Source: Escherichia coli
GTDB taxonomy: Bacteria; Pseudomonadota; Gammaproteobacteria; Enterobacterales; Enterobacteriaceae
Direction: 5' to 3' (one strand)
Length of the DNA stretch: 64,000 bases
Assembly: GCF_022846255.1 (NCBI RefSeq)
Contig: NZ_AP025682.1
A program made the translations under genes and the position numbers. The notes under the pieces were generated by a model. That model was not told where the DNA came from and searched no databases. It saw nothing but the letters and a program-made list of their open reading frames with translations. Positions 56,843 to 60,048 of the stretch are shown here, piece by piece. Each line of letters starts with the position of its first letter. Position 1 is the stretch's first letter.

Positions 56843-56934
56843 TCTCTGACGTTTTCCGGGTGGCGCTGGTCGCCCGGATTACAGCTCATAGGGTGTGACG
56901 ACACCTGCTATTCCCGCAAAATCTCTCGTATTTC

Positions 56935-56974
56935 GCGAGGCGTTTTCCAGATATGATGTAACAGTTGCAGTTAT
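56935..56974. repeat. repeat copy A: GCGAGGCGTTTTCCAGAT plus TGTAACAGTTGCAGTTAT
   Basis: first segment recurs at 59036-59053 (one mismatch); second segment recurs at 57397-57414 (one mismatch). Confidence 0.7.
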
Positions 56975-57057
56975 TATAAGTTCAAGTAAAACAGCCTTGT
57001 ATTAATACCAGAATAAGGGCATCTGGTTTTTTATATTCATGAATAAAAAAACTTTTG

Positions 57058-57276
57058 TCATTCCTTATGCTGCTTACATAGTTCTTCAACACCAACTGCC
57101 TCGTCCCTTTGCCTGCCGCCTTTTGCCTTACGCACCGGAAATTGCTGCCGCTCCAGATATTGCTCTACCGCTTCGCGTAAAATTGCAGAGCGCGAAACCT
57201 TACGCCATCCCCGAAGCTTGTTCAGCCGTTTAATTGCCTCTTCTGATAAATGAAGAAAAACCGTATTCATCGCCAT
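57058..57276 (-). CDS. ribbon-helix-helix (CopG-like) putative transcriptional regulator, YiiE/YiiF-like
   Basis: 72 aa from MAMNTVFLHLSEEAIKRLNKL; SD AAGGTGG upstream. Confidence 0.7.
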   Translation of the reverse strand: MAMNTVFLHLSEEAIKRLNKLRGWRKVSRSAILREAVEQYLERQQFPVRKAKGGRQRDEAVGVEELCKQHKE

Positions 57277-57374
57277 TACCACCACCTTACATATATTACT
57301 CATTAATGTATGTGCGAAAATTACGCCGGAAAGTTAATTAACGAAAGCGGATTTTTTCATATTGTTTTGTTTTT

Positions 57375-57414
57375 GCGAGACGGCATCCAAAGATAATGTA
57401 ACAGTTTCAGTTAT
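57375..57414. repeat. repeat copy B: GCGAGACGGCATCCAAAGAT plus TGTAACAGTTTCAGTTAT, upstream of the RHH gene
   Basis: contains tandem CAGTT pentamers; candidate operator. Confidence 0.6.
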
Positions 57415-57502
57415 TTCAATTGTTACTCAAAAATGGTTTATTACTTTTAATTAAGCGGGGGCACATCTACAGGAAAGAAACAACAAATAATAAGGATGAA
57501 TT

Positions 57503-57619
57503 ATGGATGCTATAAATATTTTATATTCAAGAATATTTTTTGATTGGGTCTTCATTTGCTTCATCAGGATGGTGTACCCGAAAAAGTCAGCAGCTTTACC
57601 GCACCAGGGTTTAAGGTGA
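57503..57619 (+). CDS. candidate small hydrophobic protein (38 aa), unannotated-type sORF
   Basis: SD TAAGGA 7 nt upstream of ATG; MDAINILYSRIFFDWVFICFIRMVYPKKSAALPHQGLR; stem-loop at 57637-57663 downstream. Confidence 0.3.
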   Translation: MDAINILYSRIFFDWVFICFIRMVYPKKSAALPHQGLR

Positions 57620-57671
57620 AATCTACCATTCATAACGACCGGTCAGTGCCGCACCAACCGGTCTTTAATTG

Positions 57672-57950
57672 TTAGTAGTAGTAAATTTGTGGATAACAGT
57701 CCGGGAACCAGACGATTCCTTCCGGATCATCCCCCTGCATTACCCGATGACATTGGCGTCGATCATCTGCGCGACGGCGAAGCGTAGTATAGAGCCGCTT
57801 CCATTCATGATCGCCCGGTGTACTGTAGTTTACCCAACAATCCATTGAAGGGTGACGCCATTTACCTGTAAGTGTTGGGATCCCTGAATGCTTATGCGGC
57901 TTCGCTTTACCATTACGATCCCTATCTTTACGCGTATTAAACGTGGACAT
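57672..57950 (-). CDS. hypothetical basic Cys/Trp-rich small protein (92 aa)
   Basis: strong SD AGGAGA 7 nt upstream of ATG. Confidence 0.45.
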   Translation of the reverse strand: MSTFNTRKDRDRNGKAKPHKHSGIPTLTGKWRHPSMDCWVNYSTPGDHEWKRLYTTLRRRADDRRQCHRVMQGDDPEGIVWFPDCYPQIYYY

Positions 57951-58011
57951 TTTTAGTCTCCTGTTAAGAGTTCTAAAAATGTGCTTCCTTAAAATAGTTC
58001 ATCATTTTCCC

Positions 58012-58224
58012 TTAATTCGCATAGCGTGCTTTTGCACGAATTTCCGATACGCGGGGACCATTATGATAGCGTCGATGCCCACACATCCAACAAGAACAAA
58101 TACAGGGAGTACGAAAGCAAATACCTGATGCTTTTTTGCTTCCATCGCCTGCAGTGCGATAACGACAGCGGATTTTTTTTAATCGCACCATATGATGGCG
58201 ACGTTCAGCACGATTACGGGTCAT
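58012..58224 (-). CDS. hypothetical Arg- and Cys-rich small protein (70 aa), possible zinc-binding
   Basis: strong SD AGGAG 7 nt upstream of ATG; cluster CFRTPCICSCWMCGH. Confidence 0.4.
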   Translation of the reverse strand: MTRNRAERRHHMVRLKKIRCRYRTAGDGSKKASGICFRTPCICSCWMCGHRRYHNGPRVSEIRAKARYAN

Positions 58225-58308
58225 AGCAAAACTCCTGAGCAGGCGGCACTATGCCGCTTTCATAGGAGTTCTGAATGCTGGTGCTTTCTGTATGGCATAA
58301 CCATGCCT

Positions 58309-58599
58309 CTAACGGTTAAGTGCTTGCAGCACATGTTGCGGATCATTGGCAATCGCTCGCAGCAAAGCCTTTGCAGGCCCGGTCGGTGAACGTCGCCCCT
58401 GCTCCCAGTTACGCAACGTGTCTACGCTTACGGAAATAAGATCGGCAAATTTAGATTGTGACAACCCTGAAGCGCGGCGTATTTCTTTGATTTTCATAGC
58501 ATCAACTTCAAAAGTCCGTGAAGGCTGTCGCGTTCCTTCAATAATTTCATTCATCTGGGCCATGCTGTGAGTCAACCGCTCAAAAAGTGCCTTATCCAT
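58309..58599 (-). CDS. XRE-family HTH antitoxin (HigA-like)
   Basis: 96 aa; HTH IRRASGLSQSKFADLISVSVDTLRNWEQGRR; start abuts toxin stop. Confidence 0.7.
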   Translation of the reverse strand: MDKALFERLTHSMAQMNEIIEGTRQPSRTFEVDAMKIKEIRRASGLSQSKFADLISVSVDTLRNWEQGRRSPTGPAKALLRAIANDPQHVLQALNR

Positions 58600-58911
58600 T
58601 TACCACCTCGTATTTAACAACCGGAGCATTGCTTTTTCCTGGGGAGACAGATCATCTTTAATACCCTTACGATAAATAAGCAGTAATCTGATCTCATAAT
58701 GTTTAACCTGATGAAAGTAAATAACCCTGACACCAGCACGTTTCCCCTTTCCTCCTGAGACCCATCGAACCTTTCTTAACCCACCAGTTTCAGGTATTAC
58801 CTCACCATAGTCAGGATTCAAGGCCAGGAAAAACTGAAAACGACTGAATTCATCGTCGTTCAGCAGTTTTTGAACATCTTCAGTAAAAATTTCCGTTTCG
58901 ATGAAGAGCAT
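58600..58911 (-). CDS. RelE/ParE-superfamily toxin (HigB-like, toxin-first operon)
   Basis: 103 aa; small basic protein immediately upstream of the HTH antitoxin. Confidence 0.6.
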   Translation of the reverse strand: MLFIETEIFTEDVQKLLNDDEFSRFQFFLALNPDYGEVIPETGGLRKVRWVSGGKGKRAGVRVIYFHQVKHYEIRLLLIYRKGIKDDLSPQEKAMLRLLNTRW

Positions 58912-58948
58912 AATTATACGCCATTGGCTTAGAGTAACAATCCTTTTT

Positions 58949-58965
58949 GTACGTCATTGACGTAC
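58949..58965. promoter_or_regulatory. perfect palindrome GTACGTCA-t-TGACGTAC upstream of toxin gene; candidate TA operator
   Basis: 8-bp arms; adjacent to TTGTTA-16-TATAAT promoter-like hexamers. Confidence 0.5.
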
Positions 58966-59035
58966 CATTGAAACCACTAGCTTACTGATAGTGCTCCAGC
59001 AAAACCACGTCTCTGCCGGGTTTGTCTTTACATTT

Positions 59036-59053
59036 GCGAGGCGCTTTCCAGAT
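59036..59053. repeat. repeat copy C: GCGAGGCGCTTTCCAGAT, 11 bp upstream of esterase start
   Basis: 17 of 18 identical to 56935-56952. Confidence 0.7.
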
Positions 59054-59064
59054 TTTTCACGCCC

Positions 59065-60048
59065 GTGAATTTCCCTGTATCCATCCAGCAAAAACGGGTG
59101 TATAAAACTGTACATTCATACAGCAAAATGAGTTCTACTATGGCACTGGAAAAAGGAATTGCAGAGTTAGTCGAAGAGTTTATCGCTGCGGGTCGCCCCT
59201 CATCGCGCCAACAAAGTATTACGCAGCGCAGAGAGGGCTATATCGCCAGCGCTGTCCTTGCGGGTGAGACAGAAACGCGGGTAGATATTCAGACTATCGA
59301 ACTTGAAGGGATGACCTTACGAATAGTGTCACCGCTGAATGCCCCGACATTACTCCCGACGATAATTTATTACTACGGTGGCTGTTTTGTTAGCGGCGGG
59401 TTCGCAACTCACGACAACCAGCTGCGCCAGTTAGCCTATTACGGGCAATGTCGGATTATTGCCGTCCAGTATCGGCTGGCACCGGAACATACTTTCCCCG
59501 CCGCCCATGATGATGCACAACGAGGTGCAGAATTAGTCCGGCAACACGCCGAACGACTCGGCGTTGATAAACAACGAATAACTCTTGCCGGTGACAGTGC
59601 GGGAGGGCATCTGGCGCTGGTAACTGCTTTGCGATTGAAGCGTGCTGGCGAGTGGCAACCAGCACAACTCATCTTAATTTATCCTATGCTTGATGCGACT
59701 GCGCATTTCGAAAGCTACATACGCAATGGTCACGATTACATCATCACACGCGACACTTTACTGAGCGGCTTTGAGATGTACCTGCCAGGCATTGAACGCA
59801 GGCATCCTGAAGCCAGCCCTATTTGGCGCAATGATTTCAATGGCTTGCCACCTGTACATATCATTACCGCTGAATACGACCCACTTTGCGATGAAGGTGA
59901 AGCGTTGTATCACCGCATGACAGGGCAAGGAGTGCAATGCACCTGCCAACGCTACCTTGGCGTTATCCACGGATTTTTTCAGTTAGGTGGTATCAGTGAG
60001 GCTGCGCGATCGGCGCTACGGGATGTTGCCTGGAGAGCGGGAAGGTAA
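59065..60048 (+). CDS. alpha/beta-hydrolase esterase/lipase (hormone-sensitive-lipase family); start uncertain (GTG 59065, ATG 59128 or 59140)
   Basis: GDSAGG nucleophile elbow, YYGGCF oxyanion motif, C-terminal HGF. Confidence 0.7.
   Translation: MNFPVSIQQKRVYKTVHSYSKMSSTMALEKGIAELVEEFIAAGRPSSRQQSITQRREGYIASAVLAGETETRVDIQTIELEGMTLRIVSPLNAPTLLPTIIYYYGGCFVSGGFATHDNQLRQLAYYGQCRIIAVQYRLAPEHTFPAAHDDAQRGAELVRQHAERLGVDKQRITLAGDSAGGHLALVTALRLKRAGEWQPAQLILIYPMLDATAHFESYIRNGHDYIITRDTLLSGFEMYLPGIERRHPEASPIWRNDFNGLPPVHIITAEYDPLCDEGEALYHRMTGQGVQCTCQRYLGVIHGFFQLGGISEAARSALRDVAWRAGR

Follow-up and report, generated by a model that had tools for sequence, protein, structure and literature searches.

The 64,000-nucleotide stretch of Escherichia coli DNA studied here (contig NZ_AP025682.1 of assembly GCF_022846255.1, referred to as the window) contains, at positions 58,309 to 58,965, two small adjoining genes and their upstream region, which we interpret, with a probability of about 85%, as a chromosomal, toxin-first operon that belongs to the HigB2/HigA2 type of type II toxin-antitoxin systems. 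The preliminary description of this stretch had proposed a RelE/HigB-like toxin together with an antitoxin featuring an XRE-type helix-turn-helix (HTH) domain. This reading was supported by our analysis, and the family could be narrowed to that of Vibrio cholerae HigB2/HigA2. The interpretation is based on homology, the catalytic residues, the predicted fold, and the conservation and position of two operator sites.

Identity of the gene pair

The toxin gene (58600-58911, minus strand, 312 nt) starts with an ATG at 58911, ends with a TAA at 58602-58600, and encodes a protein of 103 amino acids with an isoelectric point of 9.3, classified as a HigB2-type (PF06296-family) protein of the RelE fold and predicted to be a ribosome-dependent mRNase. 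Its stop codon directly abuts the ATG (58599) of the antitoxin gene on the same strand, the junction reading TAAATG. The antitoxin gene (58309-58599, minus strand, 291 nt) encodes a HigA2-type (‘NadS family’) protein of 96 amino acids, for which homology predicts an N-terminal neutralising segment (residues ~3-31) and a C-terminal XRE-HTH domain for dimerisation and DNA binding. Accordingly, the basic 103-amino-acid open reading frame (ORF) and the adjoining 96-amino-acid HTH ORF described before were borne out in coordinates, stop-start junction, and isoelectric point. The order toxin before antitoxin was also found in upwards of 60 homologous loci.

In a phmmer comparison, the toxin matched V. 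cholerae HigB-2 (PDB 5ja9/5jaa/8a0x) over residues 2-99 with an E-value of 1e-19. Alanine substitution of R51, R64, Y82, and K84 is known to lower the activity of the V. cholerae toxin (VcHigB2) 170- to 3000-fold (PMC5416850). These residues align to R49, R62, Y80, and K82 of the E. coli toxin and were invariant in family alignments comprising 12 and 30 members. Several close toxin homologues (72-73% identity) carry a precomputed PF06296 match.

The antitoxin matched HTH_3 (PF01381, E 3e-9) and, over residues 5-89, the NadS model NF041265 with 60.7 bits, just above the cut-off of 60, and it is annotated as nadS in RefSeq. NadS-annotated proteins are the regular partners of the toxin homologues on Acinetobacter, Klebsiella, and Shewanella plasmids; a literature search for the origin of the name ‘NadS’ returned nothing bearing on toxin-antitoxin systems. 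In PADLOC, only generic HTH matches were obtained for the antitoxin. A profile built from 24 antitoxin sequences matched VcHigA-2 (5jaa/5j9i) at near full length (E 7e-12, residues 5-89), the alignment taking in the N-terminal LF..L helix, which is the toxin-neutralising element in V. cholerae.

Furthermore, the structure of the pair was predicted with AlphaFold2, the paired alignment consisting of 30 fusions of the form toxin-(G4S)6-antitoxin drawn from related loci; the model has a mean predicted local distance difference test (pLDDT) score of 82.5. The modelled toxin follows the beta-alpha-alpha-beta-beta-beta-alpha order of HigB2, and its Gly/Lys-rich beta2-beta3 loop is of low confidence, as in the crystal structure. 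Foldseek superposition of the toxin half on HigB2 chains (5jaa, 5ja8, 8a0x) resulted in template modelling (TM) scores of 0.80-0.86 and root-mean-square deviations of 1.6-2.8 Å, and the C-terminal domain of the antitoxin reached TM scores of 0.79-0.83 against HigA2 (5j9i). In the antitoxin, residues 3-21 were modelled as a helix (pLDDT 87-97) and residues 28-31 as a short strand. V. cholerae HigA2 (VcHigA2) takes this helix-plus-strand form only when bound to HigB2, and the model predicts the same conformation for the E. coli protein.

The pair thus compares most closely with V. cholerae HigB2/HigA2 (VCA0468/0469; PDB 5JA8, 5JA9, 5JAA, 5J9I, 8A0W, 8A0X), with which it has in common the toxin-first order, the RelE fold, and the four active-site residues at 38-42% toxin identity, as well as, judged from sequence and model, an antitoxin that apparently joins an N-terminal neutralising segment to a dimeric C-terminal XRE-HTH domain. 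However, the two genes are adjacent in E. coli and separated in V. cholerae, the linker of the E. coli antitoxin is ~7 residues shorter than that of VcHigA2, and the single V. cholerae operator, which overlaps the −10 element, is replaced by two operator sites 33 bp apart. Rts1/Proteus HigBA, K-12 HigBA (YgjN/YgjM), and Salmonella SehAB are likewise toxin-first modules with an autorepressing HTH antitoxin, but they belong to other toxin (PF05015) and antitoxin families and are related only at the level of the RelE superfamily. Membership in the Rts1/K-12-type HigBA or SehAB groups was rejected, as there was no PF05015 match and no HigA model (TIGR02607) among the NCBIfam matches. Salmonella SehAB (STM4031/STM4030.S), considered as an orthologue near fdhE, is K-12-HigBA-like, with a SehB of 142 amino acids, and therefore represents another family. 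MqsRA was also rejected: the antitoxin reached 39.1 bits against TIGR03830 (cut-off 61.8) in the HTH part only, and the 96-amino-acid protein contains no cysteine and thus no CxxC...CxxC zinc domain.

Comparison between enterobacterial genera shows that purifying selection is acting on both genes. Synonymous sites are saturated at this distance, so that a ratio of substitution rates (dN/dS) is not properly computable, and the proportions of nonsynonymous (pN) and synonymous (pS) differences are given instead: for the toxin, pN was 0.14-0.19 and pS 0.6-0.9 (pN/pS ~0.2); for the antitoxin, pN was ~0.10 and pN/pS ~0.12.

Putative operator sites upstream of the toxin gene

Two inverted repeats were recognised upstream of the toxin gene. 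The distal operator candidate, O1 (58949-58965), is a perfect 17-bp palindrome with 8-bp arms, GTACGTCA-A/T-TGACGTAC (plus strand: GTACGTCA-T-TGACGTAC), present exactly as previously described. The proximal operator candidate, O2 (58917-58931), reads TAAGCCAATGGCGTA on the minus strand and deviates by one mismatch from TACGnCAnTGnCGTA; the centres of O1 and O2 are 33 bp apart. Of the single operator postulated in the preliminary description, O1 holds as a candidate, but the second site, lying beneath the supposed promoter, had been missed.

Perfect palindromes with arms of at least 8 bp are not rare in the window (12 observed versus 5.0 ± 2.2 in Markov simulations), and the O1 palindrome by itself therefore proves little. 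The motif TACGnCAnTGnCGTA was found in the 64 kb once without mismatch and twice with at most one mismatch, both sites being upstream of the toxin; simulations yielded 0 and 0.13 occurrences, respectively. The operator of VcHigA2, TGTACGC-N5-GCGTACA, has been footprinted and crystallised, and spans from just past the −35 element across the −10 element (PMC11006873). O1 and this operator have GTACG-N7-CGTAC in common, with identical half-sites and spacing.

The prevalence of the motif was determined for toxin relatives from species-representative genomes, from which 76 loci were fetched and 68, including the window, were scanned over 200 nt upstream for TACGnCAnTGnCGTA with up to two mismatches. 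At least one site was present in 66 of the 68 loci and two sites in 43, compared to 0.006 sites per region after shuffling. In 43 homologous loci, the distal site is kept at −53 to −69 relative to the toxin ATG. Conservation is wider for the proximal site (−20 to −27, up to −34), which represents the sole site in Pseudomonas loci. Between genera, the operators were retained at 14-15 of 15 bases despite the saturation of synonymous sites. Taken together, the match to the VcHigA2 operator and the conservation in 66 of 68 loci support the earlier suggestion that the palindrome serves as an operator.

Acinetobacter plasmids encode RelE/ParE-NadS pairs (e.g., p597A-6.7) with 44-45% toxin identity and a NadS-annotated partner, which differ from the E. 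coli module in being plasmid-borne and in having a single operator; in the A. baumannii plasmid homologue (44% toxin identity), the only site is ATACGCCATTGACGTAC at −25. These pairs are probably of the HigBA2Ab type known from pAB120, whose antitoxin was demonstrated to be an autorepressor and whose toxin acts as a corepressor (PMC5906591). More distant plasmid homologues from Klebsiella and Shewanella feature other GTAC-containing palindromes, as expected if operator and repressor co-evolve.

O1 is located within the 228-bp intergenic region shared with a divergent alpha/beta-hydrolase gene (59140-60048, plus strand), and its plus strand reads TTGACG, given the A centre. Both features would suit an operator belonging to the hydrolase gene, or to another regulator, instead of the toxin-antitoxin pair. 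We consider this highly improbable, since the motif accompanies the pair where the hydrolase is absent (Enterobacter hormaechei, Leclercia, Xenorhabdus, Pseudomonas, and the Acinetobacter plasmid), no −10 element follows O1 on the plus strand, and O1 matches the VcHigA2 operator. A plus-strand hydrolase promoter starting from the TTGACG of O1 was likewise discarded for want of a usable −10 element downstream.

Start codon, promoter, and proposed regulation

The preliminary description had pointed to a promoter-like TTGTTA-16-TATAAT ending 1 nt ahead of the toxin ATG, so that either the promoter or the start codon appeared questionable. This element is indeed present (58913-58940, minus strand; TTGTTA 58940-58935, TATAAT 58918-58913), its −10 hexamer ending two positions before the A of the ATG, with the single base 58912 in between. 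It scores 10/12 and is the only sigma-70-like match in 57900-59400. O2 fills its spacer and, by an overlap of 2 nt, supplies the opening ‘TA’ of TATAAT.

The start codon proved to be sound, as indicated by its conservation throughout the family. At the corresponding ATG, the homologues all begin with M-[LIV]-F-[IV]-E, most of them being called at 103 amino acids; the few toxin calls of 122 amino acids represent upstream extensions running through the operators. In the window, the stretch from the upstream in-frame TGA (58956-58954) to the ATG at 58911 contains no further ATG, GTG, or TTG in frame. The hexamer adjoining the start codon, on the other hand, is lineage-specific: TATAAT was found in E. 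coli only, TATTAT in Pseudocitrobacter, TATGAT, TATATT, or TACATT in Enterobacter and Leclercia, TAGGGA in Klebsiella spallanzanii, and TACTGA in Xenorhabdus, and strong versions of the TTGTTA-16-TATAAT pair occur only in E. coli and Pseudocitrobacter. The dilemma is thereby resolved in favour of the start codon.

An alignment of 20 enterobacterial upstream regions revealed a conserved TAnTnT (TACTAT, TAATAT; TACTCT in the window) directly 5' of the proximal operator, its alignment positions A66, T68, and T70 being (nearly) invariant across the 20 loci. When 60 loci were scanned for promoters, the distal operator was seen to provide, with its right half, a −35 element TTGAC(G/T), followed by a spacer of 16-17 nt and a TAnnnT −10 element, with the proximal operator at or just past the −10; the best promoter-like element in most relatives was TTGACG-16-TAcTAT. 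The corresponding elements in the window are a candidate extended −10, TGtTACTCT (58931-58939, minus strand; TACTCT 58936-58931), at the family-wide −10 position between the operators, and a candidate −35, ATGACG (58952-58957, minus strand), inside O1, separated from TACTCT by 15 nt. The −35 reads TTGACG in relatives whose O1 centre is T, and ATGACG in the window, where it is A. Transcription starting near 58925-58921 would give a leader of ~10-14 nt devoid of a Shine-Dalgarno sequence, and O2 likely covers the transcription start and this leader. A mini-ORF of 14 codons (MAYNYALHRNGNFY), out of frame and overlapping the toxin start, opens with an ATG at 58922-58924 (minus strand) in the O2 core CAATG. 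With A58924 as the transcription start, it would be placed at the mRNA's 5' end; it is probably incidental.

Based on these comparisons, TTGTTA-16-TATAAT is most likely a by-product of the operator arm CGTA and an AT-rich leader, and not the ancestral promoter. Alternatively, it could be a working E. coli promoter, with a transcript start ~5 nt inside the toxin ORF, leading to antitoxin-only transcripts under O2 control or to an effectively silent toxin. Its position as the sole strong sigma-70 match of the region speaks for this possibility, as do the strong equivalent TTGTCA-16-TATTAT in Pseudocitrobacter, the loss of the TTGACG −35 in both lineages because the O1 centre is A, the antitoxin’s own Shine-Dalgarno sequence, and the need of toxin-first modules for extra antitoxin. 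However, the hexamer after CGTA is not kept across the family (TAGGGA, TACTGA, and TACTCA in relatives), CGTA followed by an AT-rich leader readily mimics a −10, a start 7 nt past TATAAT falls within the ORF and offers pyrimidines only at the expected start positions, and a predicted internal higA promoter of A. baumannii higBA2 proved inactive (PMC5906591). A working promoter at this position is therefore regarded as unlikely. Equally doubtful is an evolutionary variant of it, in which the O1-embedded promoter would have been weakened in E. coli and Pseudocitrobacter (centre T to A, 15-nt spacer) and a new TTGTyA-16-TATwAT, 19 bp downstream, would produce antitoxin-only transcripts under the proximal operator; if true, a toxin-first module would thereby have a compact means of adjusting the ratio of antitoxin to toxin, or of silencing the toxin. 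With either promoter, a repressor on the proximal operator would block transcription.

For the HigB2/HigA2-type operon favoured here, toxicity, DNA binding, promoter position, and trigger are inferred. By homology, the toxin would enter the ribosomal A site and cleave translating mRNA by means of R49, R62, Y80, and K82, and the N-terminal segment of the antitoxin (helix 3-21 and short strand) would neutralise it, the C-terminal XRE-HTH domain mediating dimerisation. The antitoxin dimer, or a toxin-antitoxin heterotetramer, is proposed to bind the two GTACG-N7-CGTAC inverted repeats and thus to repress the operon, O1 overlapping the presumed ancestral −35 and O2 abutting the −10 and covering the putative transcription start and short leader. 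Once the labile antitoxin is lost, as happens through Lon in V. cholerae, the toxin would be set free and transcription derepressed. A good Shine-Dalgarno sequence of the antitoxin, GAGGTG (58604-58609, minus strand), can be read within the last toxin codons, whereas none was seen upstream of the toxin ATG in the sequence read there. Given this asymmetry and the TAAATG junction, the antitoxin should stay in excess, which fits the requirement of a toxin-first operon.

Several observations weigh against this interpretation. The match of the toxin to PF06296 ‘RelE’ is weak (i-Evalue 0.0062, 17.2 bits) and covers residues 43-101 only, and no NCBIfam or PADLOC model matched the toxin. Of the VcHigA2 residues contacting bases (R68, E71, N72, and R77), the last two are kept in the antitoxin as N64 and R69, and D60 and R63 replace R68 and E71. 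ATGACG-15-TACTCT would represent a weak promoter in E. coli, the TG extension partly offsetting this, and with a weak promoter of the ancestral type and no Shine-Dalgarno sequence, toxin expression could be very low. Literature searches by protein accession and locus tag retrieved no experiments on the E. coli pair, only a paper cataloguing it in adherent-invasive E. coli (AIEC). Finally, the toxin was disrupted (truncated or frameshifted) and the antitoxin intact in 7 of 67 species-representative loci (L031, L051, L079, and others), indicating that the family decays.

Some of these points would equally suit a remnant in decay, whose toxin is expressed or active barely, if at all, and whose antitoxin survives mainly as a small XRE regulator: the toxin lacks a Shine-Dalgarno sequence, the ancestral-type promoter is weak in E. 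coli, and some E. coli strains (e.g., Iso00225, L003) harbour toxin alleles with a frameshift, in addition to the disrupted representative loci. Disruption of the toxin with retention of the antitoxin is the usual decay route of toxin-antitoxin modules. Nevertheless, far more than two thousand genomes of E. coli contain an intact toxin ORF of 98-100% identity, the catalytic residues are invariant, and pN lies far below pS, which makes such a remnant improbable.

The weak Pfam match and the missing NCBIfam model account for the RefSeq label ‘hypothetical protein’ of the intact toxin; frameshifted copies are labelled ‘RelE/ParE family toxin’. UniRef entries name the pair Toxin HigB-2/Antitoxin HigA-2, and another source uses RelE/ParE toxin/NadS. 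PF06296 members have been reported to be inconsistently called HigB-2, RelE, and RelE/ParE as well as StbE (bioRxiv 10.1101/2025.01.28.635273). Both proteins also match PHROGs of unknown function. It is safe to annotate the intact toxin as a RelE-family toxin of the HigB2 type and its partner as a HigA2/NadS antitoxin.

Genomic context and history of the module

The module is located between fabY (yiiD) and fdhE. A 1.3-kb query was found to be 100% identical in ATCC 11775, S88, UM146, APEC O1, and other strains, and 2635 of the 5426 complete genomes of E. coli contain the toxin-antitoxin segment (at least 80% coverage); K-12 is without it. The pair relE-1/yiaG-1 (TA27; NRG857_19405/19410), reported from AIEC NRG857c and the uropathogenic strain CFT073, is placed between yiiD (fabY) and fdhE and was described as missing in K-12 and HS (Bustamante and Vidal 2020, PMC7232551). 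As in the window, its genes are adjacent and comprise 312 and 291 nt, and it appears to be this very locus. In contrast to the present analysis, the pair was only catalogued in that study, without a toxin domain, an assignment to HigB2/HigA2, or an analysis of operators and promoter.

The preliminary description had regarded the module as acquired together with the surrounding islet. As a recent gain, this is doubtful, because the same fabY-fdhE site holds the module in nine other enterobacterial genera, namely Citrobacter, Enterobacter, Salmonella (S. enterica subsp. arizonae), Pseudocitrobacter, Kluyvera, Klebsiella (K. spallanzanii), Leclercia, Lelliottia, and Siccibacter, with the alpha/beta-hydrolase gene also present in six of them, and because a scar of the antitoxin 3' end remains in E. 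coli O157:H7. This strain and similar ones are without the module but keep window positions 58171-58334, including the last 26 nt of the antitoxin gene, followed by two transposase-like genes. In ETEC4075, the module and the transposase-like genes are both found, and between them, beyond the hydrolase, 58230-58334 recurs in a second copy of 87% identity. This segment of ~105 bp (58230-58334; also L004 3298-3401 and L005 2924-3084) comprises the last 26 nt of the antitoxin gene and the hairpins GGCAT-ggtt-ATGCC and GCGGCA-tag-TGCCGC. From the sequences, the situation in O157:H7 looks like a deletion of the toxin-antitoxin pair and the hydrolase by recombination between ~105-bp direct repeats, leaving the antitoxin scar, and the overall distribution points to an old resident lost by deletion rather than to a recent gain by B2 strains. 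The toxin family is also common on plasmids, with 881 records, 307 of them from Acinetobacter, and occurs in a few phage records.

Regarding the neighbouring genes, the fdhE-fabY interval represents a multi-allelic hotspot, for which E. coli shows at least four structural variants. The hydrolase, divergent from the module, is of the hormone-sensitive-lipase type, its best model being LipP1 (237 bits, cut-off 350). Synteny with the module was seen in six genera; in Enterobacter hormaechei, Leclercia, and Lelliottia, the hydrolase gene is missing and the module directly adjoins fabY. An ORF at 58012-58224 (minus strand), 84 nt downstream of the antitoxin gene and preceded by a good Shine-Dalgarno sequence, AGGAG, encodes a Cys-rich protein of 70 amino acids matching phrog_4499 (unknown function, E 1e-13). 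It is annotated in some E. coli genomes only and kept beside the module in Klebsiella spallanzanii and Pseudocitrobacter vendiensis. Another ORF, at 57672-57950 (minus strand), encodes a hypothetical protein of 92 amino acids (WP_001296612.1) with no match in NCBIfam, PADLOC, or PHROGs and 61% identity to the same-position ORF of Klebsiella spallanzanii; O157:H7 and K-12 keep its 5' part only. Compared to K-12 (L002), the region 56906-57443 contains yiiE only (57058-57276); K-12 and O157:H7 have two CopG-family genes (yiiE and yiiF) after fdhE. An Rfam scan of 57000-59400 gave no RNA family match.

As a predicted toxin-antitoxin pair, the module was known before, and its family is well characterised in V. 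cholerae with respect to structure and biochemistry. The findings thus add little new biology. For the family, they show that the HigA2 operator consensus GTACG-N7-CGTAC reaches across Enterobacterales, Pseudomonas, and Acinetobacter plasmids, usually as two sites bracketing the promoter, and the TATAAT beside the ATG illustrates how an operator arm and an AT-rich leader can mimic a promoter. For E. coli, the module appears to be an old and repeatedly lost resident of the fabY-fdhE hotspot, and not the marker of a recently acquired pathogen islet.

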